This document shows, piece after piece, positions 14,592 through 57,803 of a DNA stretch of 64,000 bases. The notes under the pieces are model-generated. The model did no database searches. It was not told the origin of the DNA and was given only the letters and a program-made list of their open reading frames with translations. How positions within the stretch are numbered: the stretch's first letter is position 1; each line of letters starts with the position of its first letter. The position numbers and the translations under genes are program-made. This stretch comes from Candidatus Multivoradales bacterium. Its GTDB lineage: Bacteria > Acidobacteriota > Thermoanaerobaculia > Multivoradales > JAHEKO01. The DNA lies in contig CBDCYF010000005.1 of NCBI GenBank assembly GCA_965224065.1, positions 2,006,695 through 2,070,694 on the forward strand. Direction: 5' to 3'.

Positions 14592-14691
14592 CGTTCTATG
14601 CGGCTCCCAACCTGGGGGAACGGCCCCCGATCATACTTCACCCTCGCAGAGGCATTGCAGAAAACATGCCGCTGCCCAAGACCCACGGTTC

Positions 14692-15507: not shown

Positions 15508-15517
15508 CGACCGCTCG

Positions 15518-16324: not shown

Positions 16325-16381
16325 CGAGGAGACCCTCCTGGTCGCCGCTAACCTACCATAGCCAGGCCGTTAAACCCGGTG

Positions 16382-17164: not shown

Positions 17165-18501
17165 CGCCGGGAACGAAGAAACATCAAGCCAAAGGGCGCC
17201 CAGATGGCCAGATAGACCCACGGCATGAGCGGCGCGCCGGTGAATTGCGGAAGGTAGGAGAGCGGGACCAAGGCCGACAGCAGCAGCCACGCCGGTTGCC
17301 GGGAGATCGCGGCCCAGGGCAGCACCCACAACAGATACCATGGGTACACGGTTGCGGAGCACAGAATGATCGTGCCGAAAACCGCCCCGGTGAGGGGAGC
17401 CACGCGGCCCGGCCGGCTCCGCCAGGTCAGCAACGCGATGCTCCCGGCGGCCAGCACTCCCAGGACGATCTTGGCGAGCAACTGCGGATAGTTGAACGGA
17501 TAGAGACGATTCCACCTGTCGTGCCCGCCCTGGCGCTCTTTGAGGGCGTCGAGCACTCCCTCGATCCAGGCGGTGATCTCCAACCGATCGATCAGCCGCC
17601 ACAGCGGCTCGAACAACGGCCCGTTGAACTCCCACGAAACACCATAGGTGAGATATCCCGGCGGTATCCCGCCCACCGAGTGGACCACCGGCGCAAACGA
17701 GATCGCCGCGACCGCCAGGGCGACGGCCAGAAAGACCAACGGCCGGCCGCTCGAGCGCGCCCAGACCGGCAGCGCGAGCAGCGGAACGACCTTGGCCAGG
17801 ATCGCGGCGCCGGCCGCCACCGCCGCGCCCGTCACCCGCTTCGGCCGGCCGGAGAGCCACAGCACCACCACGGCGACCGCCAAGACCCCGAGGGCGTCGA
17901 CGTGGCCCATCCCGGCGATCTCGAGCACCGGCAGCGGGCTCCACGCATACCAGACCACCCGGCCTACCGGCACGGACAACTTCCGCGCAACCAGCACCAG
18001 CAGATAGCAGACCGCGAGATCGGCCGCCGTCAGGATCGTCTTGAGCACCAGAACCGGCGCCGGGAACCGAGCTGCGAGAGCAAAGACCGAGACCGCCAGC
18101 GGCGGGTAGACCGTCTCGACCTCGCGGTGCGCCAGGCGGTCGTACAGACCGTCCCGCAACGGCTCGAGCTCGGGGTCTTCCGGCGCCACCAGATAGGGGT
18201 TGAGCCCGGCGCCGGCGACGCGACCGTCCCACACATAGCGGTAGACGTCATCCGAGAGGGTCGGCGGCAACGGCAGCGCCAGCAGCCGCAAAGCCGCGGC
18301 CACCAGCAGGATGCCGGCCATCGAGGACTGAGGATCTTTTGCTATCCTCGCCGCCGCCCAGACGAGACCGCAGAAACCGGCCGCCAGCCAGGCCACTGTC
18401 ACCCACGGATGGGCCGCAAGATCGAACGTCACCAGCAACCCCGCCTGAGCCACGAAGAGCGGCGCCGCCGCCACGGCAGCGCGACGAACTGAACGCCTCA
18501 C
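17149..18501 (-). CDS. Polytopic membrane glycosyltransferase, GT87/DUF2029-like (GT-C fold); start uncertain (GTG at 18501, ATG at 18321)
   Basis: About 10 TM helices with periplasmic-loop acidic motifs (SDDVYRYVWDGR), typical of GT-C mannosyl/arabinosyltransferase-like proteins. It overlaps truA by 16 nt. Confidence 0.5.
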   Translation of the reverse strand: MRRSVRRAAVAAAPLFVAQAGLLVTFDLAAHPWVTVAWLAAGFCGLVWAAARIAKDPQSSMAGILLVAAALRLLALPLPPTLSDDVYRYVWDGRVAGAGLNPYLVAPEDPELEPLRDGLYDRLAHREVETVYPPLAVSVFALAARFPAPVLVLKTILTAADLAVCYLLVLVARKLSVPVGRVVWYAWSPLPVLEIAGMGHVDALGVLAVAVVVLWLSGRPKRVTGAAVAAGAAILAKVVPLLALPVWARSSGRPLVFLAVALAVAAISFAPVVHSVGGIPPGYLTYGVSWEFNGPLFEPLWRLIDRLEITAWIEGVLDALKERQGGHDRWNRLYPFNYPQLLAKIVLGVLAAGSIALLTWRSRPGRVAPLTGAVFGTIILCSATVYPWYLLWVLPWAAISRQPAWLLLSALVPLSYLPQFTGAPLMPWVYLAIWAPFGLMFLRSRRWSTG

Positions 18502-18509
18502 CAATCGCA

Positions 18510-20012
18510 ATGGAAGAACTCTTCGCCCAGGCGACGCTCGTGACGTACTACCTGATTCTCGGGATGCTGGCTCTTTTTGGTGGCCACCGGCTCCAGCTAC
18601 TGCGTCTCTACTATCGCACACGGCACGTCGAACCACCCGAGCCCCGGACACCCGAGGAGTGGCCCGACGTCACGGTCCAGCTCCCGCTGTTCAACGAGAT
18701 GTACGTAGCCGACCGGTTGATCCGTTCGGTCTGTGCGCTCGACTACCCGCGCGAGCGTCTGCACGTCCAGGTTCTGGACGATTCCACCGACGAGACCCGC
18801 AAAATCGTCGCGGCGACGGTCGAGGAGTATCGCAACCGCGGGTTCTCGATCGAGCATCTGCACCGCACCGACCGCACCGGTTTCAAGGCCGGGGCGCTGG
18901 AGGCCGGGCTGGCGACTGCCCGTGGCGATCTGATCACCATCTTTGACGCCGATTTTGTGCCGATCCCCGAGTACCTCAAGCGCATCGTTCCCTATTTCAC
19001 CGACCTCGCCACCGGCGAGGAGCTCGGCATGGTGCAGGCGTGCTGGGACCACATCAACCGCGACTACTCTCTGTTGACACGCATCCAGGCGGTCTTTCTC
19101 GACGGCCATTTTCTGATCGAGCACGCGGCGCGCAATCGCTCCGGCCGTTTTTTCAACTTCAACGGCACCGCTGGGATGTGGCGCCGGCAGGCGATCGAGG
19201 ACGCCGGCGGCTGGCAGCACGACACGCTGACCGAGGATCTCGACCTCTCCTACCGGGCCCAGCTCGCCGGCTGGAAGTTCCTGTTCCTCCCCCACCTCAA
19301 AGTGCCCGCAGAGCTGCCGGTCGAGGTCAATGCGTTCAAGCGGCAGCAATTCCGCTGGGCCAAGGGATCGATCCAGACCGGGCGCAAACTGCTGTCCCGG
19401 ATCTTGCGCGCCCGCCTGCCGTGGAAGGTCAAGCTCGAGGCGCTGATTCACCTGACCAACAACGCCAGCTACTTGCTGATGGTGGGGCTGTCGCTTCTGA
19501 TCTTCCCGGCGATGACCGTCCGCCGCGGCAGCGAGGCGTGGAGCCTGTTGACTATCGACTTGCCTCTCTTTTTGTGCGCCACCGTGTCGGTCCTGCTTTT
19601 CTATCTCGCCAGCCAGCTCGCGGCCGGGCGTGGGCTCGGGCGCGGGCTCAAACACTTGGCCCCGCTCATGGGCCTGGGCATCGGCCTGGCGATCAACAAC
19701 TCCCGTGCGGTGATCCAGGGACTGGGCAGAGACGTGGGCGTTTTCGAGCGCACGCCAAAGTACAAGATCGAGCACAGCGGCGACGGCTGGTTTGGCAAGA
19801 AGTACCGCGTGGGCGCCGACCTGTCGACGGTGCTCGAAGGCATCCTCGCCGCCTGGTTTGTGTGCGCGTTTGTGCTGGCGTTCAAGATGGGGATGTGGAT
19901 GTCGCTGCCGTTTCTCTATCTGTTCCTGCAAGGCTTCTGCTACATGTACTTGCTGTCGATGTTCTCCACCGGCCGCGGCCGCTGGCGTCCCACCGAGCCG
20001 GCACCGGGCTAG
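18510..20012 (+). CDS. Family-2 glycosyltransferase, processive beta-glycan synthase type (cellulose-synthase-like)
   Basis: It shows two N-terminal TM segments, a GT2 catalytic domain and C-terminal TM segments. The catalytic-domain motifs are DDSTDET, DAD (FDADF), TED (LTEDLD) and the QxxRW motif FKRQQFRWAKG. Confidence 0.8.
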   Translation: MEELFAQATLVTYYLILGMLALFGGHRLQLLRLYYRTRHVEPPEPRTPEEWPDVTVQLPLFNEMYVADRLIRSVCALDYPRERLHVQVLDDSTDETRKIVAATVEEYRNRGFSIEHLHRTDRTGFKAGALEAGLATARGDLITIFDADFVPIPEYLKRIVPYFTDLATGEELGMVQACWDHINRDYSLLTRIQAVFLDGHFLIEHAARNRSGRFFNFNGTAGMWRRQAIEDAGGWQHDTLTEDLDLSYRAQLAGWKFLFLPHLKVPAELPVEVNAFKRQQFRWAKGSIQTGRKLLSRILRARLPWKVKLEALIHLTNNASYLLMVGLSLLIFPAMTVRRGSEAWSLLTIDLPLFLCATVSVLLFYLASQLAAGRGLGRGLKHLAPLMGLGIGLAINNSRAVIQGLGRDVGVFERTPKYKIEHSGDGWFGKKYRVGADLSTVLEGILAAWFVCAFVLAFKMGMWMSLPFLYLFLQGFCYMYLLSMFSTGRGRWRPTEPAPG

Positions 20013-21184: not shown

Positions 21185-23368
21185 CTAGAGATATTCCAGG
21201 CCCGCGTATTTGGCGATCAGTTTGCGCTTGCCGACGCGGTCGAAGTAGACCGTCAGCTTGGAGTTCTCGCCTTCTCCTTCGGTCGCCACGACGACGCCAT
21301 CGCCCAGCACCGGATGGCGCACCCGCCGGCCTCGCCCGGCTCCGGTTTTCGAGTCGCCGGCCCCGTCGGCAAAGGGAGCCGCGGAGCGAGAACGGCCAAA
21401 AAAAGAGCGTACGCCGGCGCTTCGTGAGTCGGCAAAGAGCTCCGGGCTGTTGGTGATCTCCAGACCGTCGGCCGGAATCTCGTCGAGAAACTGCGACGGC
21501 TCCTGATCCTGGTACCGACCGGCGATCCGGCGCCGGCGGCAGGTGGTCAGAAAGAGCTTTTTTTCGGCCCGGGTCATCCCGACGTAGAGCAGGCGGCGCT
21601 CTTCCTCGAGTCCGTCCGGAGCGCCCTGAGAGTTGAAGTGCGGCAACAGACCGTCTTCGAGCCCGGCGACGGCCACCACCGGGAACTCGAGCCCCTTGGC
21701 GGTGTGGAGCGTCATTAACGATACCCCGCGCTCCTGCTGCCACTGGTCGATGTCGGCCACCAGGGAAGCGTGGTCGAGAAATGCAGTCAGGACGTCCTCT
21801 TCACTCCGTCCCGAGCGCTCCTCGGTGAACTCCTGGGCGGCGGTCAGGAACTCGCGAATGTTCTCCAGCTTGGCCTGCGACTCGGCGTCGTCCTTCTGAT
21901 ACTGCTCGGCATAGTTGGTGCGCTCGAGCAGGCGATCGAGCAGCGCCGGCAGCGGCAGATCGGCCATCGCCTCTTGCAGCTCCAGGATCAGGTCGCGGAA
22001 ACGCACCAGGGCCTGGCCGCCGCGGCGCGGGTAGGCGCTGGGCTCGATATGGAGAAGCCCATCCCACAACGGCTGTTTCTGGGACTCGACCTTCTCCGCC
22101 AGCAATCCGCGAGTCGCCTTGCCGATCCCCCGCGGCGGGCGGTTGAGGATCCGGCCGAGCGAGTAGTCGTCGCGAGGATTCCGCAGGACCCTCAGATAGG
22201 CGACCAGGTCCTTGATCTCGGCGCGCTCGTAAAACCTCATCCCCCCGACCAGCACATAGGGGACCTTCTCTTGCAGCAGGCGCTCTTCCAGAGCGCGGGT
22301 CTGCGCGTTGGTGCGCACCAGCACGGCCATGTCGCTCCAGGAGAACTCGGTGTGGAGCTGCTTCATCGTGTTGACGATCCAGCGCGCCTCGTCGAGCTCG
22401 TCGCGGGCGCGAAATAGCTCGACCGGCTCGCCGGCGCCGGCGTCGGTCCAAAGCCGTTTGCCCCGCCGTCTCTGGTTGTGGGCCACCAGCCCGTCGGCGG
22501 CCGTCAAGATGTTCTGGCTCGAGCGGTAGTTGCGCTCGAGCTTGCGGATCTCGGCACCCGGGAAGAAGGACTCGAACTCGAGCACGTTGTCGAGATCTGC
22601 GCCGCGCCAGCGGTAGATCCCCTGATCTTCGTCCCCCACCGCGGTCAGATTGCCGCCCGCTCCGGCAAGCGTCTGGATGAGCTTCATCTGCGCGTGGTTG
22701 GTGTCCTGAAACTCGTCCACCAGCAGGTAATGGATGCGCGCCCGCAAACGCTCGCGCAGGCTCTCCTCGTCGAGCAGCAACCGAACGGCGAGACGCAGCA
22801 TGTCGTCGAAATCGATGCCCATGCCGGCTTTGAGAAGCCCCTGGTAGCGACGGTAGACCAGCGCGATCTTCTGCTCGTAGAAGTTCGCCGCCTGGCGCTC
22901 GTAGGCCGCCGGCGCCAGCAGCAGGTTCTTGGCGGTCCCGATCGCCGCCAGCACCGCCCGCGGCGGGTACGAGGTCTCAGCCAGTCCTTCGGCGGTCAAC
23001 GCCTTTTTGACCAGCGAGATCTGATCTTCGCGATCGAAGATGACGAAATCCCGCGGCACCCCCACGCGATCGCCGTAGCGCCGCAACAGGTCGAGCGAGA
23101 ATCGATGAAAGGTCCCGACAAAGGTCGGCAGCGGATAGATTCCCACCAGCCGCTCGATGCGCTCGCGCATCTCGCCCGCCGCCTTGTTGGTGAACGTCAC
23201 TGCCACGATCGAGCCCGGGTCGATTCCCAGCTCGCGCACCAGGTAGGCGACCCGGTAGGTGATGACCCGGGTCTTACCCGACCCTGCGCCGGCCAGAACC
23301 AGTTGCGGCCCCTCGCCGTGGGTGACGGCGGCGAGCTGCTGCTCGTTGAGCTCCTGCTCGAGATTCAA
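21185..23368 (-). CDS. uvrD: ATP-dependent DNA helicase, UvrD/PcrA family
   Basis: Motif I is AGAGSGKT. Motif II DEFQDTN, motif III GDEDQGIYRWRGA, motif IV RNYRS and motif VI VGMTRA are all present; length 727 aa. Confidence 0.9.
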   Translation of the reverse strand: MNLEQELNEQQLAAVTHGEGPQLVLAGAGSGKTRVITYRVAYLVRELGIDPGSIVAVTFTNKAAGEMRERIERLVGIYPLPTFVGTFHRFSLDLLRRYGDRVGVPRDFVIFDREDQISLVKKALTAEGLAETSYPPRAVLAAIGTAKNLLLAPAAYERQAANFYEQKIALVYRRYQGLLKAGMGIDFDDMLRLAVRLLLDEESLRERLRARIHYLLVDEFQDTNHAQMKLIQTLAGAGGNLTAVGDEDQGIYRWRGADLDNVLEFESFFPGAEIRKLERNYRSSQNILTAADGLVAHNQRRRGKRLWTDAGAGEPVELFRARDELDEARWIVNTMKQLHTEFSWSDMAVLVRTNAQTRALEERLLQEKVPYVLVGGMRFYERAEIKDLVAYLRVLRNPRDDYSLGRILNRPPRGIGKATRGLLAEKVESQKQPLWDGLLHIEPSAYPRRGGQALVRFRDLILELQEAMADLPLPALLDRLLERTNYAEQYQKDDAESQAKLENIREFLTAAQEFTEERSGRSEEDVLTAFLDHASLVADIDQWQQERGVSLMTLHTAKGLEFPVVAVAGLEDGLLPHFNSQGAPDGLEEERRLLYVGMTRAEKKLFLTTCRRRRIAGRYQDQEPSQFLDEIPADGLEITNSPELFADSRSAGVRSFFGRSRSAAPFADGAGDSKTGAGRGRRVRHPVLGDGVVVATEGEGENSKLTVYFDRVGKRKLIAKYAGLEYL

Positions 23369-23369
23369 G

Positions 23370-25193
23370 CTACTCGACGGTCACGCTCTTGGCGAGATTG
23401 CGCGGTTGGTCGACATCGGCGCCTCGGCGCACGGCGACAAAATAGGCGAAAAGCTGAAGCGGCACGACGTTGACGACCGGCTGGAGAAGCTCCGAGACGC
23501 TCGGCACGGAGATGACATGGTCCGCGGCACCGCCGAGGGCCTCGGGATCGCGGTCGGTCACCGCCAGCACGACGCCGTCTCGGGCGCGCACCTCCTGCAT
23601 GTTGCTCACCACCTTGTCGAAGACCCTCTCCCCGGTGGCGATCGCGACCACCGGCATGGACTGGTCGATCAAGGCGATGGGGCCGTGCTTCATCTCACCG
23701 GCGGGATAGCCCTCGGCGTGGATGTAGGAGATCTCCTTGAGCTTGAGCGCTCCTTCTAAGGCGATGGGGTAATTGGCACCGCGCCCGATGTAGAGAAAAT
23801 CGCTCGCTTCGGCAAACCGGCCCGCCAGCGCCTCGAACTCGGCCTCCCGCATGACGACCTCGTCGATCGACTGGGGCAGGTGGGCCAGATCCGCGAGCAG
23901 CGACTCCTCCACCGGCCGGCCGAGCTGCTGTCTCAGATAGAGGGCCAACAGGTAGAGCGCGATCAACTGCGTCGTAAAGGCCTTGGTCGAGGCCACACCG
24001 ATCTCCGGGCCGGCGTGAGTGTAAATCACCCCTTCGGCCAGCCGGGTCGCCTGGCTTCCGACGACGTTGCAGATCGCCGCCAGCCGGGCTCCGCGCTCAC
24101 CGGCCGCCTCCATGGCCGAGATCGTGTCGGCAGTCTCTCCCGACTGCGAGATCCCCACCGCCAGATCGCCCCGCCGGACCAGCGGGTCCCGGTAGCGGTA
24201 CTCCGATCCGTAGTCCACCGCCACCGGAATCCTCGCCAGCTCCTCGAGCATGAACTTTCCGATCAGGGCCGCATGCCAGGAGGTTCCGCAGGCGAGCAAA
24301 TGGATCCGGCCGATGGCCGCGACATCCTCCTGGGAAAGCTCCAGACCGTCAAAACCGATCTCACCGCTCTCGAAGTCCACCCGGCCGCCAAAGGTGTCCT
24401 GCACCGCCTGCGCCTGGTCGTGAATCTCCTTGAGCATGAAGTGCTTGAAGCCGCCTTTTTCGGTCTGGATGGGGTCCCAGTCGAGTCGCACCGTGGGGCG
24501 CTCGACCGGCTTGCCGGAGCCGTTCCAGACCTCGAGGCCGTCGGCCGTCAGCCGGGCCACGTCCCCGTTCTCGAGAAAAATCACTTCGCGTGTGTGGGCG
24601 AGAACCGCGGTCGGGTCCGACGCCAGAAACTGCTCGTCAGTGCCCCGGCCGAGGACCAACGGTGGCCCACTGCGGGCCGCTACGATCTCCGGCTCCGACG
24701 ACTCGAGCGACAGCACCGCAAATGCGTACATACCCTCGAGATCGGCGACCGTCTTTTGCACCGCGTCCCGGAGATCGCCCTCGAAATGCGAGCTCACCAG
24801 GTTGGCGATGACCTCGGTGTCGGTGTCGGAGACAAACTCCCAGCCATCCTCGACCAGACGCTGTTTGAGGGGCAGAAAGTTCTCGATGATGCCGTTGTGG
24901 ATAAGCGCCAGCCGCTTCCGAGCGTCCAGGAGCGGGTGGGCGTTGCGCTGGGACGGGATGCCGTGGGTGGCCCAGCGGGTGTGGCCGAGTCCGTAGACGC
25001 CGGCCAGCTCGCGGCCTCCGAGCTCCTCGACCAGCCGATCCAGCTTGCCCTCGGCCTTGACGACTTCGAGGCTGCCGTTGACCGGCACCACGATCCCGGC
25101 CGAGTCATAGCCCCGGTACTCGAGCCGCCGGAGCCCGTCCAGAAGCAGCGGCACGGGCGACTTCTCCCCCAGATATCCCACGATGCCGCACAT
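23370..25193 (-). CDS. glmS: Glutamine--fructose-6-phosphate aminotransferase
   Basis: MCGIVGY carries the N-terminal nucleophile Cys, and two SIS domains are present. The C-terminus ends ...AKSVTVE, over 607 aa. Confidence 0.95.
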   Translation of the reverse strand: MCGIVGYLGEKSPVPLLLDGLRRLEYRGYDSAGIVVPVNGSLEVVKAEGKLDRLVEELGGRELAGVYGLGHTRWATHGIPSQRNAHPLLDARKRLALIHNGIIENFLPLKQRLVEDGWEFVSDTDTEVIANLVSSHFEGDLRDAVQKTVADLEGMYAFAVLSLESSEPEIVAARSGPPLVLGRGTDEQFLASDPTAVLAHTREVIFLENGDVARLTADGLEVWNGSGKPVERPTVRLDWDPIQTEKGGFKHFMLKEIHDQAQAVQDTFGGRVDFESGEIGFDGLELSQEDVAAIGRIHLLACGTSWHAALIGKFMLEELARIPVAVDYGSEYRYRDPLVRRGDLAVGISQSGETADTISAMEAAGERGARLAAICNVVGSQATRLAEGVIYTHAGPEIGVASTKAFTTQLIALYLLALYLRQQLGRPVEESLLADLAHLPQSIDEVVMREAEFEALAGRFAEASDFLYIGRGANYPIALEGALKLKEISYIHAEGYPAGEMKHGPIALIDQSMPVVAIATGERVFDKVVSNMQEVRARDGVVLAVTDRDPEALGGAADHVISVPSVSELLQPVVNVVPLQLFAYFVAVRRGADVDQPRNLAKSVTVE

Positions 25194-25196
25194 TGC

Positions 25197-26606
25197 CTAG
25201 CCCTTTTTCGCCTTTCTTTTCTTGCGCTCGGCCCACCCGTCGATCGTGCGCTGCCGCGCCCGCCCCACTCCCAGGCCGCCGTCGGGGACATCGGCCGTGA
25301 TCACCGAGCCCGCCGCGGTCACGGCCTCGTCGCCGAGGCGAACCGGCGCCACCAACATCGTATCGCTGCCGACAAACGCCCCGGAACCGATCTCGGTGCG
25401 GTGCTTGTTCTCACCGTCGTAGTTGCAGGTCACGGTGCCGGCGCCGATGTTGGCTCCGGGGCCGATCTGGGCGTCTCCCAGATAAGCCAGGTGCCCGGCC
25501 TTGACCCCGGCCTCGAGCCGTGAGTTTTTGACCTCGACGAAGTTTCCGATCTTGGACGCCGGTCCGATCACCGTTCCGGGTCGCAGCCGGGCAAACGGGC
25601 CCACCCGCGCCTCGGTCTCCACCTCGGCTCCGTCCAGGACCGAATGGGGCTCGAGGACGACCCCGTCCTCGATGACGCTGTCGCGCACCCACACCCCCGG
25701 GTGGAGCACGCAGCCCTCGCCGATGCGGGTCCGTCCGCAAAGCGTCACCCCCGCGTGAATCTCGGTGTCGGCTCCGACCTCGACCGAGGGCTCGATCCAG
25801 AGCCGGTCGGGATCCCAGACCGTCACCCCGGCGTCCTGAAGCTCCTGGGCCCGCCGGCGGGAGAAGGCTTCGCGGGCCCGCGTCAGGTCGGCCCTTCGAT
25901 TGACCCCGAGGGCCTCGGCGGTGTCCGCGAGCCGCTGGAGACGGATGCCGGCGCCGCCACGGGCCGCCGCGGTCAACGCGTCGGTCAGATACAGCTCGCC
26001 CTGGGCGTTGTCGGGACGCAGCCGCTCGAGCTCGGAGAAGATCTCCGGTACGGGCAGCACATAGGTCCCGGCGTTGACCGTCCGGATGGCGAGCTCCTCG
26101 GCGTCGGCGTCGGCGGCCTCGACGATCCGCTTCAAGGTCCCGTCGGGCCGTTCGATGACCCGGCCAAAGGAGCCCGGGTCTTCGAGATCGGCTACGGCCA
26201 TGGACCCCCAGCCCTCTGTGCCGGCGTCGATCAGCGACTCGAGGGTGGCCGGCGTGACCAGGGGCACGTCGCCGGACAGCACCAGCACACGGGACGGCCC
26301 CAGCCGCTCGACCGCCGGTCGAGCCTGCGCCAGCGCGTGACCGGTCCCGCGTTGTTCCTCCTGCACCACCCAGTCGACGCCGTCACCCGGCGTCGACTCC
26401 CGGACGCGATCGGCCTGGTGACCGATCACGCAGACGATGCGCCGGCATCCGCTCGCGCGGGCGGCCTCGAAGACCCACTCGAGGAGGGTGCGGCCTAAAA
26501 CGCGGTGCAGAACCTTGGGCGTCGAAGAGCGCATCCGGGTCCCCTGCCCGGCGGCCAGGACCACGGCGACCGGGCCGTTCCCGGCCTTTTCACCGCCCGG
26601 GCTCAC
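25197..26606 (-). CDS. glmU: Bifunctional UDP-GlcNAc pyrophosphorylase / GlcN-1-P acetyltransferase
   Basis: LAAGQGTRM is the uridylyltransferase motif, and the C-terminal left-handed beta-helix carries hexapeptide repeats. Confidence 0.95.
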   Translation of the reverse strand: MSPGGEKAGNGPVAVVLAAGQGTRMRSSTPKVLHRVLGRTLLEWVFEAARASGCRRIVCVIGHQADRVRESTPGDGVDWVVQEEQRGTGHALAQARPAVERLGPSRVLVLSGDVPLVTPATLESLIDAGTEGWGSMAVADLEDPGSFGRVIERPDGTLKRIVEAADADAEELAIRTVNAGTYVLPVPEIFSELERLRPDNAQGELYLTDALTAAARGGAGIRLQRLADTAEALGVNRRADLTRAREAFSRRRAQELQDAGVTVWDPDRLWIEPSVEVGADTEIHAGVTLCGRTRIGEGCVLHPGVWVRDSVIEDGVVLEPHSVLDGAEVETEARVGPFARLRPGTVIGPASKIGNFVEVKNSRLEAGVKAGHLAYLGDAQIGPGANIGAGTVTCNYDGENKHRTEIGSGAFVGSDTMLVAPVRLGDEAVTAAGSVITADVPDGGLGVGRARQRTIDGWAERKKRKAKKG

Positions 26607-27655
26607 GGATCACCGCCCCCGTGGTCATCTTCGTCGTCGTCGTCTTCTTTCTGGGCCTCGGCTCGCCCGTCCGTTTGGGCCCCGGTCCGGAGCGTCGCCG
26701 TGGCCATCGCGAGCACCGCGCGCCGCAGCTTGGCCGGGTCGTGCCGGATCAGCTCCCCCGACGCCAGCAGATCGGCCGAGGTCACCTCGACTCCCAGACG
26801 GCCCAGGGCCTCGGGATCGACGTGTACCGGCACCGAGCCGACGTCGGCATAGTGGGCCAGCAGACGATCCGGATACGCACCATGGTGCACCAGCACGGTG
26901 TCCACCAGATCGTCTCCGGTGTGCCGGCTCAGAGCTTCCAAATGGTCCACCGCGGTCATGTCTTCGGTCTCGCCGGGCTGGGTCATCAGGTTGAGTGGCA
27001 GGAGGACCCGCGCCTTGCTCGATCGGATCGCTTCGAGGATACCTGGGATCAGCAGATTGGGGAGAATCGAGGTATAGAGAGAGCCCGGCCCCAGGATCAC
27101 CAGATCGGCGTCCCGAACGGCCGAGGCCGCCCGCGGAAAGGCCGCGACCCGCGCCGGCTCGAGCTCCAACCGCTCGATCGGCTCCCCCGAGCCACCGACC
27201 TCCGATTCTCCGTCGTAGAACCGGCCGGATCGTCCCCACGCCTTGAGACGCACGTCGCTCAGAGTTGCGGGCAGGATCCGGCCCCGGACCGAGAGCAGCT
27301 CCTCGGCGGTCAGAATGGCCTGGTAGAAGTCGCCGGTGATGCCGGTGAGTGCCGTCAGAAAGAGATTGCCGAAGGAATGACCGGCCAGCCCCTCGCCGTC
27401 GGCAAACCGGTACTGAAAGAGCTTGGCGACGAGATCCTCGTCGCGGGCCAGAGCCACCAGACAGTTTCGAATGTCTCCAGGTGGCAGCACGCCGAAGTCT
27501 CGCCGCAGGCGGCCCGACGAGCCGCCGTCGTCACTCACGGTGACGATCGCCGTCAGCCCACCGAGCTGGCGTCCGAGAGTGGGTTTGAGCGTCCGCAGGA
27601 GCACGGACAGGCCGCTACCCCCGCCGACAGCGACGACGCGGGGCTTGCTGATCAA
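26603..27655 (-). CDS. yvcK: Gluconeogenesis factor / GlmR (YvcK, UPF0052/CofD-like)
   Basis: VVAVGGGSGLSVLLR and TAIVTVSDDGGSSGRLR are the YvcK/CofD family signatures. It overlaps glmU by 4 nt. Confidence 0.85.
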   Translation of the reverse strand: MISKPRVVAVGGGSGLSVLLRTLKPTLGRQLGGLTAIVTVSDDGGSSGRLRRDFGVLPPGDIRNCLVALARDEDLVAKLFQYRFADGEGLAGHSFGNLFLTALTGITGDFYQAILTAEELLSVRGRILPATLSDVRLKAWGRSGRFYDGESEVGGSGEPIERLELEPARVAAFPRAASAVRDADLVILGPGSLYTSILPNLLIPGILEAIRSSKARVLLPLNLMTQPGETEDMTAVDHLEALSRHTGDDLVDTVLVHHGAYPDRLLAHYADVGSVPVHVDPEALGRLGVEVTSADLLASGELIRHDPAKLRRAVLAMATATLRTGAQTDGRAEAQKEDDDDEDDHGGGDP

Positions 27656-27663
27656 GGCGGGGC

Positions 27664-28296
27664 TCAGGGCTGTTCGAACAAGCCAGCGTACTCTTCGCTG
27701 CCCCGCAGCTCGCCGAAATCGGAGTCGTGGAAGGCGTAGACCCGGTTTTTCGGGTTCATCTCGATCGCGGCCCGTAGCGAGTGTGCAGCGGCCTCGTGAT
27801 CGCCCTGGAGCGCGTGGAGCGAAGCCGCCAGATAGGCGAACCGCTCGTCCTTGCCCTCACGCCCGCCGCGGCGACAGATCTCCAGAGCCTCTTCGAGATT
27901 GCCCCGGTTGCGCTCATAGACGGCGTGCAGAAACGGATCCTCCGGCCCCGACGGGCCCTTCGACGCTTTTTGCTCGGCGAGCAGCAGAAACCCCCGCGCG
28001 CGCTGCGCCAACTGCGGAAAGTCGGTCTCGTCGACGACCCTCTGCAACTGTTTCGCCGCTTGCCGGTAGTCGCCTTTTTGAATCGCCTTGAGACCGCTCT
28101 CGAACACCTTCACCAGCGGGTCGTTCTCGATCCGCATCGGCGTGATGGTGTCCTTGGCCTCGAGCGCCATCTGCTCGAGCTTCTCGGCAACGGTCTCCGA
28201 GTCGGTCTTGAAGCGCTCGGCCAGCTCCTCCAGGCGCTTGATCTTGGCGTATCTTTTGAGATACGTCTCTTCTTCTTTCTTCCAGCGTTTTGCCAT
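27664..28296 (-). CDS. Soluble TPR-like helical-repeat protein of unknown function, encoded directly downstream of mglA
   Basis: 210 aa, all-helical with TPR-like repeats (AAHSLRAAIEMNPKN...). It lies 23 nt after the mglA stop on the same strand. Confidence 0.5.
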   Translation of the reverse strand: MAKRWKKEEETYLKRYAKIKRLEELAERFKTDSETVAEKLEQMALEAKDTITPMRIENDPLVKVFESGLKAIQKGDYRQAAKQLQRVVDETDFPQLAQRARGFLLLAEQKASKGPSGPEDPFLHAVYERNRGNLEEALEICRRGGREGKDERFAYLAASLHALQGDHEAAAHSLRAAIEMNPKNRVYAFHDSDFGELRGSEEYAGLFEQP

Positions 28297-28319
28297 TGAT
28301 TTAAACCTCTATTGCAGGA

Positions 28320-28904
28320 CTAGCGCTTGCGGAGCTCGATGAGAATCTGCTTCGCCACCGATTTCAAGGTGTCGAACACTCCGACCCCCTCCGGAGCGAC
28401 CGCTTCGAAGGTTGGTTCGCGCTTGTAATTCAGCATCCGGTACATCTCGTCGACCGGCATCGCATTGGGCAGGTCCCGTTTGTTGAACTGCAGAGCGAAT
28501 GGGACCGTCAGCAGCTCGAACCCGTGCTCCCTGAGGTTGGCCTCCAGGTTGCGGATCGACTCGACGTTCGCCTCCATCCGCTCCCTCTGACTGTCGGCGA
28601 CAAAGACCACGCCGTCGACCCCCTTGAGTATCAGCTTGCGGCTGGCGTCGTAAAAGACCTGGCCGGGCACCGTATAGAGGTGAAAGCGCGTGGTGAAACC
28701 GCGGATCGATCCCAGGTCGAGGGGCAGAAAGTCAAAAAAAAGCGTCCGGTCCGCCTCGGTCGCCAGCGAGATCATCTTCCCCTTCGCAGCGGGAGGGGTC
28801 TTGTTGTAGATGTACTGCAGATTGGTCGTCTTGCCCCCGAGCCCGGGGCCGTAGTAGACGATCTTGCAGTTGATCTCTTTGGCGGCGTAGTTGATGAAGG
28901 TCAT
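28320..28904 (-). CDS. mglA: Ras-like polarity GTPase MglA
   Basis: The sequence is near-identical in motif content to Myxococcus MglA. The P-loop is [20 protein letters not shown], and the switch/[11 protein letters not shown] and NKRDL G4 motifs are present. Confidence 0.85.
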
Positions 28905-29380
28905 TCGCTAAAAAGAGCGTCGATGTCTTCGTCCGTGATCTCCGAGAACGGGCTCGCTTCGGCTCGGGCGTCCGGGCCGCGCTCGGTCTTGTCCGCCATC
29001 TGATCGAAGACTTTTTCGAGCTCCGCGCTCGCCCTCTTGACCCTCAGTCGTACCAGACCCAAAGACGAGCGCTCATCGAAGATCACCAGCAGGATCGCCC
29101 GCCGAGCGACGATCGAGATGTGGATGTGATCTCTCTGGCCCTCGTGGAAAAGCACCGAGAACTCGCGCTCGCCGATGAGCTTCGCCAGCCCGTCGGTGGC
29201 CGCGACATTGCCGGCGGTTAGCGAAGCCAGCGAGGTCGAATCGAACTCGTCAACATCGCCGGCGGCGGCGATGTGCTGGCCGTTCTTGTCGATCAAGAAG
29301 ACGGCTTTTGCGTTCGAGTCGTGGCGCAGCCGCCGGAGCGCCTCCTCCAGGCGGTCGAACTCTTGTTGGAAGACTTCCAT
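28901..29380 (-). CDS. mglB: MglB, roadblock/LC7-family GAP for MglA
   Basis: Roadblock/LC7 fold length and composition. It lies immediately upstream of mglA with a 4-nt overlap. I chose the internal ATG at 29380 (MEVFQQEF). Confidence 0.75.
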
Positions 29381-29573
29381 CAGCGTCCCGAGATGCGCTC
29401 CACCTGGCCCGCGCAAGATATCACAGAGACAGCAGCGCTCCTGTTGCGGACGCTACAGCGGCAGGGCTTCACGCGACCGCGACACCAGTGGTGCACAGGC
29501 CGTTGATAGTATGCCAATTGCGCCGAAAAACCAGCCGATGTGACGCCCTCCGGCCCCTGAGAATCACGCTCCG

Positions 29574-33600: not shown

Positions 33601-36600
33601 TCACGGCCTCGACCCCAGTGTGAGGGTCTTTCGCTTCTCGCCGACGACCCGCACCTGTTCGAAGATCTCGGCCGGGGCCCCCTTCACTCGCACCGTGTAA
33701 ACACCCGCCGGAACCGCCACCGGATCCCCACCGACCGCGCCGGTCGCCAGCACCGCCCCGTCGTGGTCCACGACGTCAAACGAGCGGCTGACGGCTGCCA
33801 CCATCGATTCCTCGAGCGAGCGAGCATCGCCGGCATCGTAATACCGCCCGCCGCCCAGTTCGGCCCATCGCCGAAATCGCGCCCGGGCGGCTTCCCGGTC
33901 GCTAGCGTCGACATCGAAGCCGACGATGTTGAGCTCCACGTCGTATCCGCGCCGGCGGAGCGCCTCGATCGCCGCCTCCACGTCGCCGCCGCACGACTCC
34001 TCGCCGTCGGTGACCAAGACCACCCTCTTGGGCCCGGGCCCCTCTCCGAGGTCGCTTCCGACCAGCTCCAGCGAGGCGGCAATCGGTGTCCCCGAGAACG
34101 GCTTGGGCTCGACCGCCGCCAGCACGCGGGCGGTCTCCGCGGCATCGAGCGGCCCGAGCGGCATCTCGAGATCGGTCCGGCAGGCTTTGGCTTTCCGATT
34201 GCCGAACACTCGCAGCGCGAACGGCGTTCCGGGGGAGAGCACATCGCTGACGAGCTGACGAAGCACCCGTTTGGCGACGTCGATGCGAAGCACGCCCCCG
34301 ACCTTTCGATACATGCTCCCGGAGGCATCGAAGATTACCTCGACCGATTCTCCGGCCGTGCCCGGCGCGGCACCATCGGTGGCAGCGGCGACGACCTCGA
34401 TGCTCCCCGGCCCCGCCGGCTCCTCAAACCCGGTCTCTACGAGAACGCGGTAGCTCTTGGGCCGGCGCAAGTAGCACGACGCTCGGGCAAAGCCGACATC
34501 AAAATGGCCGATGGTCCGGGCCGAATCATAGAAACCGCCCCCGACACCCGCCCAGCTCTGCATCAGATCCTGGCTGGCGGCCGACCTCGGCGAATCGTGC
34601 TCGATCGAGGGTGTGTGCATGGTGAAGATCTGCGGCGAGGTCTGTGCGAACGTCTTCCAGAGATCCGTCGTAAGCGCGTAGCCGTTGCTGAAAGCATCGG
34701 TAATGAGCACGATCGCCCTGGCGCCCGGCCTCTTCTCCAGTGCGACCCCGGCGGTCAACAGGGCCAGCTCCGAGTTGCTGGAGAAGGCCTTGGCCGTGTC
34801 GTGCCGGTTAAGCGCCGACATCACCTCTGCTGGATCGCCCGACCATTCCTCGAGCAGAAATCGCGGCGGCTTGTCGAACGGCAGCAAGTTGACGACCTCC
34901 CGGCCGGGCTTGACGGCGCGCGCGAACTGAGTCGCCGCGGCACGGATAAAGTCAGTGTACGGGCCGATGCTGGCGCTGGTGTCCCAGGCAAGCACAACCG
35001 AGCGCGGTGGCTCCTCCAGCCGCAGGTAGTAGCTGCCCGGGGCGACATCAGCGGTCAGCTCGACCCGCTGGTAGGACCGTTCGGACTCGCTCTCCACCGG
35101 GCGTCCGCGCGGGTCTTGCAGACTCCACGAGAACGCGACCGCCGGATCGCCTTGCAGGGTGATGCGAATGGCGTTGTGGCCTTCAGGAACCTCCACCCGG
35201 TACCAGTCCACGTCCTCCTCCACAAGCACCCGCCCCGACAACGCCCGGCCTGGCGACAGCGGCTGAGCCCGCTCCCGGCTGTCGTTGTGATCGGCCTCGG
35301 CGAGAACGGACGTTCCCGAAGCCGGCCGGCCGGCCTCGAAGATCGCGCGGCGGCTCATGAATCCCCACTCGCCGAGGATGGACCTGTAGTCGGCGTCCGC
35401 CCCCTGCTCGAAGATCCTCAGGGTCTCCGGGTACCGGTAAGGTGTCTGCGGCCGCAGATCCCCGGCGGTGAATCGAACAAAGCGCGCCCATGCCGGCTCG
35501 CCGAGCGTCAGGCGCTCGACACCGTCGCCTCCGAGCCGCCAGGTAGCCAGCGTCTCCCAGGGCCCCAACGGGCTCTCCGTCGAAGCGGCCACCTCGATCT
35601 CCTCAAAGCCCAGAGCCCTCGAGCTCCGGCTCTCCGACGGGACCCACTCGAAGCCGGTGATCCTGGCCGCCCGATCGTGGTGAAAGCCCACCACCCAGCT
35701 CGCGGTGTCCTGGTCGTCGGCCGTAGTCGCAAACGTCCGCTCCGCTGCGACCGAGAGGATCGGGTGCTCGGCCGATCCGACACCGATGACGGTCCCGAAC
35801 TCCTCGGTCCCAATCAGCGGATCGGACCAAGCGACATGGCCGCCGAGCGACGGCTGGGCAATGTCCCAGGGTTCGGAGCGCAGCCTGGTCCCGGCAGCGG
35901 CGACGAGCTTCCACTCCCCGAGCGCCACCCCGCGCCCTCCGCCGTGGCTGCTGCCGAGCACAAGTCTCGCGAACCGGGCCTCGACCGGCTCTTCGAACGC
36001 AAAAACCTGCTCGCCAGGAAGCGGCTCGAGACGGCCGGTGAGGACCTCCTCGAAACGCTTGCCGTCGAGCGATGTCGAGACGGAGAATTCGGCAAGCTGC
36101 TCAGTCGCGCCTTCGATCGAGCGCCCCAGCGGATGGAGCAGCGCTCCCCACAGCTCCACCGGTTCTTCCCCGGCCAGATCGACCGTGATCGCCTGCTCCG
36201 TCTCGAACCGAGTCCGGTCTCGCAGCGGGATCGCGAGCCCATCGAAAAGCTCCCCCACAAAACGATCCTCGCCTTCCGCCGCCGCCCCCAGCGCCGGCCA
36301 AGCGACGTTGAGCCCTCCCAGCAGGCGGTCGGGCAGGGGCCACGCCTCGCCGGCCGCGCGGGGCTCCGCCCCGCACTCCGGCTGCAGCTCCACCGAAGCG
36401 GTCGCGACCGCGCCGCTTGCGGTCCGGGCGGCAACCGTCAGCAGAACCGGCTGGTCGTCCCGGGCGTCCGGCAGGATCTCCACCTGCAGCGGAATCGCCG
36501 CCGACTGGGCGGGCCCGACCTCGACCACCTCGCGTAGCAACCGACCCTTCCATGCAGCATCGCTGGTGGCGACTTCAAAACGCAGCGTCTGTATCGTCCC

Positions 36601-38343
36601 GGTCAGATTCTGGACCCAGAGACCGAGGTCGAGGACCTGGGACTGTTGCCAGTAGGCGGCGGCTGAATCGATTCGCCCTTTGATCCCCATCACCACCGCC
36701 GGGGCAACGTCGCCGGCTTCCGCTTTCGACACCCGGTCGACATCCGCCATTTTCTCGGCCGGGGTCAGAAAGGGATCGAGCTGCTCGAGCCCTACTTGAT
36801 AGAAACCTTCGAAGGGTTCTCGTGGCCGGACCGAGATCCAGTGATCGCCGGGAAGCAGCCATCCTTCAAAAATCGCCGGTTCGCCGGGCGCGGAGCTCTC
36901 CGACCGGGTTCCGCCAGTCACGTCGAAGACCACGCGGCCGTCTTCCGGCGGTTCCACCCGGACCCGCACCGGTTGCTCGGCGGCCAGGTGAAAACGGTAC
37001 TGATCGACATCCCTCGGATCCGTCAGCAGCCCGATGCGTGGAGCGCCAACGCGCAAGGTGCCGGCCTGAGCGGGCAGGTGATTGGGCTCGAACTCGCTCA
37101 AACCGGGCGGACGCACGCCGGGGATCTCCACATCGCCCGCAAGGTGCCGCGACGCTTCGAGTCCGGCTTTGGAATCCGCCGGCCCGATGGCCACGATCTT
37201 GAGCAGATACTCCGAGTCCTCTCCCTCGACGGCGATGAAGTGCTCGCCGGGAAGAAGCAGAAGGTTGTCCAGCCGCACCCGGCGCTCACCCGAGGCGCCG
37301 GCGCTCGAACCGGCATTGCCCCCCGCATCGTAGTGGCGCATCGCCCGGACCGGCTGGTCTCTCGCCAGCACCTGCGCACGCCAGAGCATCGGCTCACCCT
37401 CGACCTCGAAACGGTAGACGTCGGTTTCAGCACCCACCAGTCGCCCACGGACCGTCCGTTTCTCATCGAGCGGAAACGCCCCCGCGATGGTGTCGTTCGG
37501 TTCGAGCTCGCGGCCGTCTTCTCCCTCGCCCGCCGCCTCGACTCGCAGGAGGTACGGCGCGGGGGTTCGGTCGGCACGGGCCAGCTCGATCACCAGCTCC
37601 CCGGCCGGCGAGGACAAGTCGTCGAGAACCATCCGGCCGGCCGCATCGGGCTTGCGCTCGGCCAACAGGCTCCCCTCAGCGTCCAGGACCTTGAGGCTGG
37701 TTCGCAAACCCAGAATGGTTTGCGCGGACAGGCGCCACGTGTGGGGTGCCTCCCCGGGCGGCACCGACCACCGGATGGCGTCGGAGGAGCCGGTCAGGTC
37801 CCCGGACAAGACGAACGCGCCGATCCGCGCGACCGCCTCTTGCGCCGGATCGCCGGGCTCTCCGCCGACCGCCTCCGGCAGCGCCCCGGCCAGCCTCAGG
37901 TCGAAACGGTAGGGACCTTCGCCGCTCCCGCCGACGCCGAGCAGGTAGCGGCCGGGCGCGAACAGCAGCGGCCCCGACTCCATCGACCGGACTCCCTGGA
38001 CATCCAGAGTAAAGACCTTGCTCACCGCCCCGCCGGGTTCGCCGGCCAAAAGGACATCCAGCTTTGTTCGCTGGCCCGGAACGCCCTCGAGCTCGAGCGT
38101 CCACAGCGCGGGGCTCTCGCCGGCGACAGTCCACCAGAAAAGATCTTGATCGCCGCTGCCGAGCTCTCCGGTGACGCACATGGCGACTTCGAGGCGCTGC
38201 CCCTCGTCGGGCGTGTTGTTGGGCTCGGTGTCGGCCGCGCAATCGGCGACTTGCCCCGCCGCCAAGCCCGGCGCGAGCACAAGCGCCAAAAGGCAGACCG
38301 ACATTCGGAGACCGCCCGGGAACCTCGCTGCGGGCCGAAACAC
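33601..38343 (-). CDS. 1580-aa secreted multidomain protein: N-terminal PPC-type repeats, two galactose-binding-like (F5/8 type C) domains, a further PPC repeat, and tandem C-terminal vWA domains
   Basis: The signal peptide is MSVCLLALVLAPGLAAGQ. Repeated E(P/F)N(N/D/H)T...D(V/Q)YRF modules are present. WxRFVRF/GEWKL patterns indicate the galactose-binding fold. The two vWA cores are VLAWDTSASIGPY... and VIFDASGSMYRKVGG...VVLVTDGEE. Confidence 0.7.
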   Translation of the reverse strand: MFRPAARFPGGLRMSVCLLALVLAPGLAAGQVADCAADTEPNNTPDEGQRLEVAMCVTGELGSGDQDLFWWTVAGESPALWTLELEGVPGQRTKLDVLLAGEPGGAVSKVFTLDVQGVRSMESGPLLFAPGRYLLGVGGSGEGPYRFDLRLAGALPEAVGGEPGDPAQEAVARIGAFVLSGDLTGSSDAIRWSVPPGEAPHTWRLSAQTILGLRTSLKVLDAEGSLLAERKPDAAGRMVLDDLSSPAGELVIELARADRTPAPYLLRVEAAGEGEDGRELEPNDTIAGAFPLDEKRTVRGRLVGAETDVYRFEVEGEPMLWRAQVLARDQPVRAMRHYDAGGNAGSSAGASGERRVRLDNLLLLPGEHFIAVEGEDSEYLLKIVAIGPADSKAGLEASRHLAGDVEIPGVRPPGLSEFEPNHLPAQAGTLRVGAPRIGLLTDPRDVDQYRFHLAAEQPVRVRVEPPEDGRVVFDVTGGTRSESSAPGEPAIFEGWLLPGDHWISVRPREPFEGFYQVGLEQLDPFLTPAEKMADVDRVSKAEAGDVAPAVVMGIKGRIDSAAAYWQQSQVLDLGLWVQNLTGTIQTLRFEVATSDAAWKGRLLREVVEVGPAQSAAIPLQVEILPDARDDQPVLLTVAARTASGAVATASVELQPECGAEPRAAGEAWPLPDRLLGGLNVAWPALGAAAEGEDRFVGELFDGLAIPLRDRTRFETEQAITVDLAGEEPVELWGALLHPLGRSIEGATEQLAEFSVSTSLDGKRFEEVLTGRLEPLPGEQVFAFEEPVEARFARLVLGSSHGGGRGVALGEWKLVAAAGTRLRSEPWDIAQPSLGGHVAWSDPLIGTEEFGTVIGVGSAEHPILSVAAERTFATTADDQDTASWVVGFHHDRAARITGFEWVPSESRSSRALGFEEIEVAASTESPLGPWETLATWRLGGDGVERLTLGEPAWARFVRFTAGDLRPQTPYRYPETLRIFEQGADADYRSILGEWGFMSRRAIFEAGRPASGTSVLAEADHNDSRERAQPLSPGRALSGRVLVEEDVDWYRVEVPEGHNAIRITLQGDPAVAFSWSLQDPRGRPVESESERSYQRVELTADVAPGSYYLRLEEPPRSVVLAWDTSASIGPYTDFIRAAATQFARAVKPGREVVNLLPFDKPPRFLLEEWSGDPAEVMSALNRHDTAKAFSSNSELALLTAGVALEKRPGARAIVLITDAFSNGYALTTDLWKTFAQTSPQIFTMHTPSIEHDSPRSAASQDLMQSWAGVGGGFYDSARTIGHFDVGFARASCYLRRPKSYRVLVETGFEEPAGPGSIEVVAAATDGAAPGTAGESVEVIFDASGSMYRKVGGVLRIDVAKRVLRQLVSDVLSPGTPFALRVFGNRKAKACRTDLEMPLGPLDAAETARVLAAVEPKPFSGTPIAASLELVGSDLGEGPGPKRVVLVTDGEESCGGDVEAAIEALRRRGYDVELNIVGFDVDASDREAARARFRRWAELGGGRYYDAGDARSLEESMVAAVSRSFDVVDHDGAVLATGAVGGDPVAVPAGVYTVRVKGAPAEIFEQVRVVGEKRKTLTLGSRP

Positions 38344-38352
38344 GACCGCTCC

Positions 38353-55248: not shown

Positions 55249-55325
55249 GCACCGATAGCTCAATTGGATAGAGCACCTGACTACGGATCAGGAGGTTGGG
55301 GATTCGAGTTCTCCTCGGTGCACCA
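55249..55325 (+). tRNA. tRNA-Arg (anticodon ACG), with encoded CCA
   Basis: The 7-bp acceptor stem is GCACCGA/TCGGTGC. The D-arm is AGCTCAATTGGATAGAGC. The anticodon stem CCTGA/TCAGG encloses loop CTACGGA. The T-arm is GGGGATTCGAGTTCTCC, and the 3' end is ACCA. It closely resembles E. coli tRNA-Arg(ACG). Confidence 0.85.
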
Positions 55326-55439
55326 TTTGTTTCAATCACTTACGGCTTCGTTGAACGTCGGCGTCAGCACTCGCCGGTGGAGCCCGAGGGTGCCAAAAAG
55401 TCAGCCGACTAGCTTAGCCTCCCTTTATACGGGCCGCGC

Positions 55440-55740: not shown

Positions 55741-55913
55741 CGGATTGCTCAGCTACTACCGGCGCGAGGCCGCGCCACCTGAGCTGTGGGCCGATTTATT
55801 TGCGCCCTGCGGACGGCGACGCTGTTGAGCGCAGTTGGGAAGGAAGATGCTAGACTCCCTCTGACTCCTATACAGATAAGGTCTTCCTAACCGCCCGAGG
55901 AGGTGCAACAGGA

Positions 55914-56699: not shown

Positions 56700-56714
56700 A
56701 GTAAGGCAACGGTT

Positions 56715-57764: not shown

Positions 57765-57803
57765 TGGCCTCGAATTACCTTGCCGCAGTTTTTTGATGGA
57801 GAA

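Follow-up and report, generated by a model that had tools for sequence, protein, structure and literature searches.

MglA, a Ras-like small GTPase, and MglB, a Roadblock/LC7 GTPase-activating protein, are the model polarity switch of bacteria, and to our knowledge their function is almost unknown outside Myxococcus, Bdellovibrio and Thermus. Two tetratricopeptide repeat (TPR) proteins are described as partners of MglA. SgmX (MXAN_5766) of M. xanthus consists solely of 14 TPRs, in 1031 residues as annotated (PMC3983030), of which TPR12–14 are enough for GTP-dependent MglA binding (PMC7668184). Bd2492 of Bdellovibrio bacteriovorus binds MglA in pull-down, two-hybrid and co-purification assays (PMC3983030). 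A third protein, RomY, binds MglA-GTP as well as MglB (PMC9481161), and MglA/MglB restrict peptidoglycan assembly during spore germination in M. xanthus (PMC8144978). In a survey of prokaryotic small GTPases, the neighborhoods of Group 1 mglA genes were found to “vary widely” (PMC4316618). On the side of envelope precursors, GlmR alternates between YvcJ and GlmS according to the level of UDP-N-acetylglucosamine (UDP-GlcNAc) (PMC7525490). Here we analyze a stretch of 64,000 nt from a Candidatus Multivoradales genome (contig CBDCYF010000005.1), referred to as the window, whose positions are used for all regions and genes below. In it, mglB and mglA are followed by a gene for a small TPR protein, here called tpr, and then by glmR, glmU and glmS, genes of the UDP-GlcNAc pathway.

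The unit reads mglB-mglA-tpr-glmR-glmU-glmS(-uvrD), entirely on the minus strand, with successive gaps or overlaps of −4, 23, 8, −4, 3 and 1 nt (Table 1). No terminator-like site was found in any gap of the unit, the four minus-strand candidates all lying within coding sequence, and the unit is presumably co-transcribed. A preliminary description of this DNA had treated it as an mglBA module extended by tpr. It was right that tpr is built into the locus, but the genes it covered are just the 5′ half of a longer unit.

To place this arrangement among its relatives, we searched for homologues with the TPR protein and obtained 411 proteins, the best 120 of which are ∼210 aa long, 50–75% identical, and from Acidobacteriota/Thermoanaerobaculia wherever the source was named. 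Scanning one genome per species then yielded 80 loci, and almost all of these bear the label Acidobacteriota, Thermoanaerobaculia or Holophagales. All six proteins were placed in the loci by tblastn, and 79 loci were informative. The mglB-mglA pair was directly 5′ of tpr in 76 of the 79; the gap between mglA and tpr has a median of ∼14 nt and in 63 of those 76 does not exceed 30 nt. The next gene after tpr was glmR in 65 loci and glmU in 13. The constant place of tpr is directly 5′ of glmR or glmU, next to mglBA, and tpr is linked to the glm genes at least as tightly as to mglBA.

The converse scan was seeded with the window MglA and covered 80 metagenomic loci at 72–91% identity, which were classed by tblastn and a hidden Markov model of the TPR core. 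Among close relatives (at least 85% MglA identity), tpr came right after mglA in 13 of 14 informative loci. More distant loci that were at least partly informative numbered 41. In six of them, tpr-glmR-glmU-glmS lies on the other strand and points away from mglBA; one has tpr after mglA and then the end of the contig; 26, including Kofleriaceae (Myxococcota)-type loci, show none of the arrangements listed; and the other eight are weighed below. The mglBA-glm linkage recurs in 15 of the 41 and reaches wider than the TPR family. The idea that tpr is wired into the mglBA locus had come with an observation that would count against it, namely lack of synteny in relatives; tpr is syntenic with mglA in 76 of 79 TPR-seeded and 13 of 14 MglA-seeded loci, so no such lack is seen, and the small gaps and the lack of a terminator-like site on either side of tpr bear the idea out.

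A second homologue search assigned the divergent arrangement to Pyrinomonadaceae, which we take to be a family of the class Blastocatellia in the NCBI taxonomy. There tpr heads a tpr-glmR-glmU-glmS operon on the strand opposite mglBA, with an intergenic region of ∼500 nt between mglB and tpr (L161/L162, also L125, L145, L146 and L157–L159). Independent gene calls in the metagenome-assembled genome GCA_036389675.1 (L161/L162) give the order mglA<-mglB <-> tpr(270 aa)->CofD->glmU->glmS, where the GlmU homologue has NTP_transferase and Hexapep domains and the GlmS homologue has a GATase and two SIS domains. Synteny is thereby observed in two arrangements. Separately, in two loci with a Kofleriaceae-type MglA (L144 and L149; 83% identity to the M. 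xanthus protein), the next gene after mglA encodes a protein of 600–730 aa (...PRFRQDLVAE...), and neither tpr nor glm genes were found after mglA.

The identities of the first two genes are firm. The mglB product matches Robl_LC7 in Pfam (E = 5.5e-14, 52 bits, cutoff 23), and a PDB sequence search matched it to the M. xanthus MglB chains 6h5b/6hjm/6izw at E ∼5e-52. The match (E = 5.3e-52 for 6h5b_B) spans residues 9–171, nearly the full length, and takes in the acidic C-terminal tail. The protein thus has both a Roadblock/LC7 domain and likeness to characterized MglB, C-terminal helix included; against the Thermus-type MglB equivalog model of NCBIfam it scored 79.9, under the cutoff of 200. 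The open reading frame (ORF) in full covers 28901..29416 (−) and is longer than the version beginning at ATG 29380. This ATG is a plausible start, and a likelier one than TTG 29416, because the TTG falls within a conserved extended −10 element. The mglA product matches M. xanthus MglA (6hjh_A, E = 1.4e-94) with 74% identity over 193 residues. Its P-loop, GPGLGGKTT, is one residue apart from the GPGLCGKTT of M. xanthus, and switch I (DRTLFFDF) and switch II are the same in both. In an ungapped alignment it shows the marks of Group 1 MglA, namely the GxxxxGKT P-loop, R53/T54 in switch I and Q82 in the PGQ of switch II (YTVPGQ), and it is encoded beside its cognate mglB, with which it shares ATGA (28901–28904). 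All that had been proposed for this part of the locus from the letters alone holds: the coordinates, the 4-nt overlap and 23-nt spacing, a roadblock-fold MglB ahead of mglA, and an MglA close to that of M. xanthus in its P-loop and switch regions.

The third gene had been described as encoding a 210-aa all-helical TPR-like protein on the same strand with no other domain. Its TPR character and helical fold are confirmed: the product passes Pfam TPR_2 (28.1 bits, cutoff 27) and TPR_19 (26.5, cutoff 25) and NCBIfam TPR_END_plus (“TPR end-of-group”; 44.9 bits, cutoff 32), and its AlphaFold2 model (mean predicted local distance difference test score 90) is entirely helical, with 13 helices arranged in helical hairpins. 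By profile and by fold it is a TPR-repeat protein with ∼3–4 repeats. The claim of no other domain was wrong, since a helix-turn-helix (HTH)-like head is present at the N terminus. In the model, head helices 7–16, 22–28 and 33–42 form a three-helix bundle, which a low-confidence linker (residues 43–58) parts from a ten-helix stack. The head matches in fold the DNA-binding domain of Caulobacter crescentus GcrA (PDB 5yiu), followed by Myb, SANT, Tc3-transposase and homeodomain structures. The tpr product is a cytoplasmic two-domain protein, in which a flexible linker connects a GcrA/Myb-like head of DNA-binding type to a TPR module that is ∼150 residues long and includes a capping helix. A specific structural relative of the TPR core was also looked for and dropped: Foldseek against the PDB returned generic TPR domains only (FKBP51/52, PcrH and MamA), none at E ≤ 1e-3, and the PDB sequence search likewise yielded nothing specific.

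The TPR core is what the family conserves. Twelve of its residues are invariant across classes in alignments A1–A3 (A80, V126, N130, R131, G132, A137, R146, Y155, L174, R185, A188 and D193). Two N-terminal versions exist within the class of the window, the HTH head and a disordered Lys/Pro/Ala-rich tail starting MAKAKPKPQPK, and they have only the core (residues 59–207) in common. The Pyrinomonadaceae proteins have, in place of the head, 100–260 residues of histone-H1-like Lys/Ala/Pro tail. One protein, P0260, combines HTH head, Lys/Ala/Pro linker and TPR core. A weak match to HC2, a histone H1-like family in Pfam, was seen for a relative with both head and tail. A cluster search over 1.84 billion representatives gave 176 clusters at E ≤ 1e-30; the core is C-terminal in all but one of the 150 clusters listed, and all family members are Acidobacteriota wherever names exist.

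The gene after tpr is identified as glmR/yvcK by its product's matches to TIGR01826 (E = 5.4e-104, 348 bits, cutoff 196) and to CofD in Pfam (E = 1.6e-100). The product of uvrD, which may be the last gene and would bring the co-directional run to seven, matches UvrD-helicase (E = 4e-80) and PcrA_UvrD_tudor. Rfam returned a single tRNA in the whole window, with neither a glmS ribozyme nor a riboswitch, and riboswitch or ribozyme control was rejected.

Upstream of mglB lies an extended −10-like element, TGTGATATCTT, read from the sequence, which we regard as a putative promoter. The element (TGTGATAYYTT / TGTTGTATCTT), usually accompanied by a −35 GCTTTGACGG, is kept throughout the class, 5′ of mglB in most of 83 related loci; a generic sigma-70 scan did not call it in the window. 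In L031, a locus without mglBA, it also occurs ∼100 nt 5′ of tpr. This suggests that a single promoter drives all genes of the unit, of which the first two, mglBA, are optional, and in the window one conserved promoter 5′ of mglB probably serves the unit. Operator-like repeats 5′ of mglB were considered and discarded: the sole palindrome spans the promoter spacer, and its spacing is not kept in L001, the closest relative.

The arrangement of the cluster, which is conserved across Acidobacteria, hints at a tie between MglA/MglB and cell-envelope synthesis, and published precedents make it plausible that the GTPase switch is functionally linked to the synthesis of UDP-GlcNAc. As the best explanation, though a possible rather than a probable one, we tentatively propose that the tpr product is an adaptor between the MglA/MglB switch and the provision of UDP-GlcNAc to the cell envelope by GlmR-GlmS/GlmU. 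Its TPR core would bind the product of one flanking module, MglA-GTP/MglB or GlmR. DNA or another polyanion would be the ligand of its basic N-terminal module, an HTH here and a histone-H1-like Lys/Ala/Pro tail in relatives.

Mirror-tree residual rate correlations over 38 non-redundant loci gave an indirect view of which neighbor partners the TPR core. The positive controls recovered the known partners, at 0.44 for MglB-MglA and 0.35–0.61 within the glm trio. The core correlated with MglB at r = 0.45 overall. Within the HTH subfamily this correlation was r = 0.73, and the tail subfamily gave −0.03 with MglB and 0.61 with GlmR. A protein bridging two modules could produce such a pattern, but the pattern lacks consistency, and as a selector of the partner the method was not decisive, the signal going to MglB or to GlmR by subfamily. 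One further protein bears on the question. In P0316 (403 aa, on a JGI contig of 4.1 kb), a TPR core (residues 3–205) continues in frame as the nucleotidyltransferase domain that GlmU has at its N terminus.

Several observations weigh against the adaptor. The partner indicated by rate covariation differs from one subfamily to the other, and phylogeny confounds the signal. P0316 may be a real fusion or a frameshift artefact; as a singleton with a garbled C terminus, from a contig of 4 kb, it is taken as a hint and not as Rosetta-stone support. In Pfam, the head gave hits to assorted HTH families that all stayed sub-threshold; a Pfam assignment of this domain was therefore rejected, and its assignment is one of fold, not of family. 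SANT-type three-helix domains can also bind proteins instead of DNA. The modules come apart in some loci: L031 lacks mglBA and has tpr-glmR-glmU-glmS directly after the glpD intergenic region, L045 has the same four genes with no mglBA upstream at the locus, and L042 has neither mglBA nor glm genes, its tpr being followed by uvrD. Conversely, in L092 (MglA 89% identical to that of the window), mglA is followed directly by glmR, and the eight distant loci mentioned above join mglBA straight to the glm genes without tpr, as mglBA>glmR>glmU in L103, L113 and L116, as mglBA>glmU in L107, L119, L122 and L128, and as mglBA>glmS in L120. The lineages of these eight have MglA 77–80% identical to the window's, and some of their MglA clusters carry Thermoanaerobaculia names at NCBI. 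It follows that tpr is not needed for the linkage. The divergent order can be reached from one small inversion, and adjacency within a single phylum could be inherited.

Somewhat unlikely, in our estimate, is that the TPR protein serves the glm operon only, as a DNA-binding regulator or as a partner of GlmR, with no contact to MglA/MglB and with mglBA co-regulated or inherited alongside. The HTH or basic tail would then bind DNA and the TPR part would sense GlmR or another pathway protein, in a place like that of yvcJ/whiA around glmR in Firmicutes. Such a role would account for the position of tpr directly 5′ of glmR or glmU and at the head of the Pyrinomonadaceae operon, and it is consistent with the fold match to GcrA, with the covariation with GlmR in the tail subfamily, and with the possible TPR-GlmU fusion. 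It could also fill a gap in regulation, the control of glmS being unexplained in this organism because the window holds no glmS ribozyme or other Rfam control element. Published parallels are the partner switching of GlmR (PMC7525490) and the yvcJ-glmR-yvcL operon in enterococci (PMC10986989). However, the exchange of a sequence-specific HTH for low-complexity Lys/Ala/Pro tails would be unusual in an operator-binding regulator, and no conserved operator-like repeat beyond the promoter hexamers was found in the region upstream of mglB. Moreover, L042 keeps tpr without adjoining glm genes, glmR is not beside tpr in 13 loci, and the adjacency of mglBA, kept in two arrangements, would be left unexplained.

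That the TPR protein is instead a dedicated MglA-GTP effector or adaptor of polarity and motility, in the manner of SgmX or Bd2492, with the glm genes as mere neighbors, we consider unlikely. Its best arguments are the location of tpr directly 3′ of mglA with tiny gaps, both in the TPR-seeded loci and among close relatives in the MglA-seeded scan, and the covariation of the TPR core with MglB, which equals the MglB-MglA control and is higher in the HTH subfamily; the sufficiency of a three-repeat unit of SgmX for MglA-GTP binding (PMC7668184) points the same way. These are offset by the Pyrinomonadaceae, in which tpr is on the glm strand and opposite mglBA, by L031 and L045, where tpr stays with glmR-glmU-glmS in the absence of mglBA, and by the tail subfamily, in which covariation with MglB is lacking. 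A pure effector role does not explain a head of DNA-binding type, and the tamAB context typical of SgmX and Bd2492 is missing here. Nor does any MglA residue track the presence of tpr independently of phylogeny. When MglA and MglB residues were compared on this point, only MglA position 37 separated the groups in both tpr-bearing lineages; there M. xanthus has the residue typical of the tpr-bearing lineages, the pattern follows phylogeny, and the candidate was rejected.

We likewise doubt a stronger version of the adaptor proposal, in which MglA/MglB of Acidobacteriota would chiefly regulate the supply or placement of envelope precursors (UDP-GlcNAc via GlmR, GlmS and GlmU) and not motility, with the TPR protein as physical coupler. 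If it were true, MglAB may have had an ancestral role in cell-wall synthesis, and the role in M. xanthus spore germination would be a remnant of it.

Least probable is that there is no functional link, tpr being a lineage-specific gene in a synteny block from an acidobacterial ancestor that was packed by genome compaction: the evidence is all genomic context, the named members are from one phylum, L042 keeps tpr without either module, and Group 1 mglA neighborhoods vary widely in the published survey (PMC4316618), but the neighborhood persists, rearranged, across two classes in which GlmS is only ∼50–55% identical, the stop/start overlaps and the one shared conserved promoter argue for co-expression, and the TPR core is under selection, as its 12 residues invariant across classes indicate.

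The adaptor reading thus gives a testable hypothesis, that of a polarity switch wired to envelope precursor synthesis with the tpr product as one candidate coupler. What underlies it is a conserved acidobacterial neighborhood of mglBA, an uncharacterized TPR protein with a head of DNA-binding type, and the GlmR-GlmU-GlmS pathway. Judged by comparative evidence throughout, the pattern is robust, and it shows the MglAB module joined by an accessory protein specific to the lineage and by a metabolic linkage not described before; in the literature searched, no paper was found that mentions MglA together with GlmS or YvcK.

Table 1. Positions of the mgl-glm unit, its parts and other features of the window.
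Feature	Position	Strand	Remarks
Extended −10-like element	29415..29425	−	34 nt 5′ of mglB ATG
mglB	28901..29380	−	159 aa from ATG 29380
mglA	28320..28904	−	194 aa
tpr	27664..28296	−	encodes 210 aa in two domains, an HTH-like head joined to a TPR core by a linker
tpr product, N-terminal three-helix domain	28162..28296	−	residues 1–45
tpr product, TPR core	27676..28122	−	residues 59–207; conserved throughout family
glmR/yvcK	26603..27655	−	CofD-related, UDP-GlcNAc-binding; begins 8 nt past tpr stop
GlmR C terminus	26603–26700	−	acidic, KEDDDDEDDH
glmU	25197..26606	−	4-nt overlap with glmR; by sequence and homologues; position kept in related loci
GlmU C terminus	25197–25240	−	basic, ERKKRKAKKG
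glmS	23370..25193	−	3 nt past glmU; ORF starts MCGIVGY; position kept in related loci
uvrD/pcrA helicase	21185..23368	−	1 nt past glmS stop; possible last gene of unit
glpD-like and NYN/LOTUS neighbors	29574–32079		in L031, 3276–5932; in L042, 27–2648
Envelope genes near the unit	13269–20012		within 15 kb of the unit
rseP	13269–14591	−	
cdsA	14692–15507	−	
uppS	15518–16324	−	
Family-2 glycosyltransferase	18339–20012	+	
1580-aa ORF and 801-aa protein	33601–40758	−	C-terminal VWA_2 domain; transglutaminase core
tRNA-Arg(ACG)	55249–55325		
tRNA and low-GC stretch	55249–58500		GC 0.51 vs ∼0.66
Low-GC3 ORF	55914–56699	+	no Pfam hit
Low-GC3 ORF	56942–57391	−	no Pfam hit
Low-GC3 ORF	57804–58466	−	no Pfam hit

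Other features of the window are listed in Table 1. Upstream of the unit are a divergent gene for a glpD-like oxidoreductase using flavin adenine dinucleotide and a gene for an NYN + OST-HTH/LOTUS protein whose tail is basic (Lys/Arg/Gly). Both are conserved upstream neighbors that are kept without mglBA, the neighbors in L031 and L042 matching those in the window. The C termini of the window GlmR and GlmU carry opposite charges. The acidic GlmR tail was considered as a ligand of the TPR core or of a basic tail, and this idea was dropped because the tail is not conserved in relatives. Envelope genes lie near the mgl-glm unit, namely rseP, cdsA, uppS and a glycosyltransferase gene. Elsewhere, a large ORF with a VWA_2 domain stands beside a gene for a protein with a transglutaminase core, both otherwise without annotation, and a tRNA-Arg gene is followed by a low-GC stretch with three ORFs of low GC at the third codon position (GC3), which together may be an integrated island.

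Set beside the described systems, the tpr product resembles each in part. The preliminary description had likened it to SgmX and the Bdellovibrio TPR partner; those proteins do bind MglA-GTP, but the link to them is one of analogy. The tamAB synteny that defines them is absent here. Like SgmX, the product is a cytoplasmic TPR protein, and its core is about the size of the three-repeat unit of SgmX. Unlike it, the product has 210 aa and an HTH-like head, and its gene is between mglA and glmR, whereas the SgmX gene is in a tamAB-like cluster and not beside mglA. Bd2492, the other TPR protein with demonstrated MglA binding, differs in having 353 aa and in being co-transcribed with tamAB-like genes away from mglA, in an organism without mglB; linkage to glm genes is not reported for it. 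The neighbors of tpr are mglA and glmR-glmU-glmS-uvrD and not a tamAB-like (DUF490, surface antigen) cluster, and a scan covering some of the ORFs within ∼15 kb showed no TamB-like gene. Size, architecture and tamAB context differ, and the tpr product cannot be classed with SgmX or Bd2492.

RomY and RomX, which are accessory to the polarity module of M. xanthus, are likewise small cytoplasmic proteins and occur together with MglA/MglB. RomY, however, was found through its phyletic profile and not by adjacency, is not encoded at the mgl locus, and has an uncharacterized N-terminal domain (residues 8–89); as an identity for the tpr product it was rejected by its architecture as described, 188 aa and no TPR (PMC9481161). 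The likeness to GcrA is confined to the fold of the N-terminal domain, for which DNA binding is predicted here. The C terminus of GcrA is a sigma-70-binding domain, whereas that of the tpr product is made of TPRs, and the Pfam scan of the tpr product returned no GcrA match even at E ≤ 10.

The RRNPP-type regulators (Rgg, PlcR, NprR and PrgX) likewise have an HTH at the N terminus and a TPR domain, ligand-binding in their case, at the C terminus. These are proteins of Firmicutes, ∼280–300 aa or more in length, that have an XRE-type HTH and 5–9 TPRs and bind peptide pheromones. The tpr product does not show the XRE-type HTH with 5–9 TPRs: its head is GcrA/Myb-like, it has ∼3–4 repeats, and in relatives the head is swapped for Lys/Ala/Pro tails. 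A final parallel is the yvcJ-glmR(yvcK)-yvcL operon of Firmicutes, in which yvcL presumably encodes the DNA-binding protein WhiA. YvcJ is a RapZ-related P-loop NTPase; in WhiA, a homing-endonuclease-like fold is joined to an HTH. Neither is a TPR protein, no mglBA is nearby, and the tpr product is unrelated to YvcJ in fold. In both settings, partner or regulator genes flank glmR, and in the window it is tpr that takes the slot directly 5′ of it.

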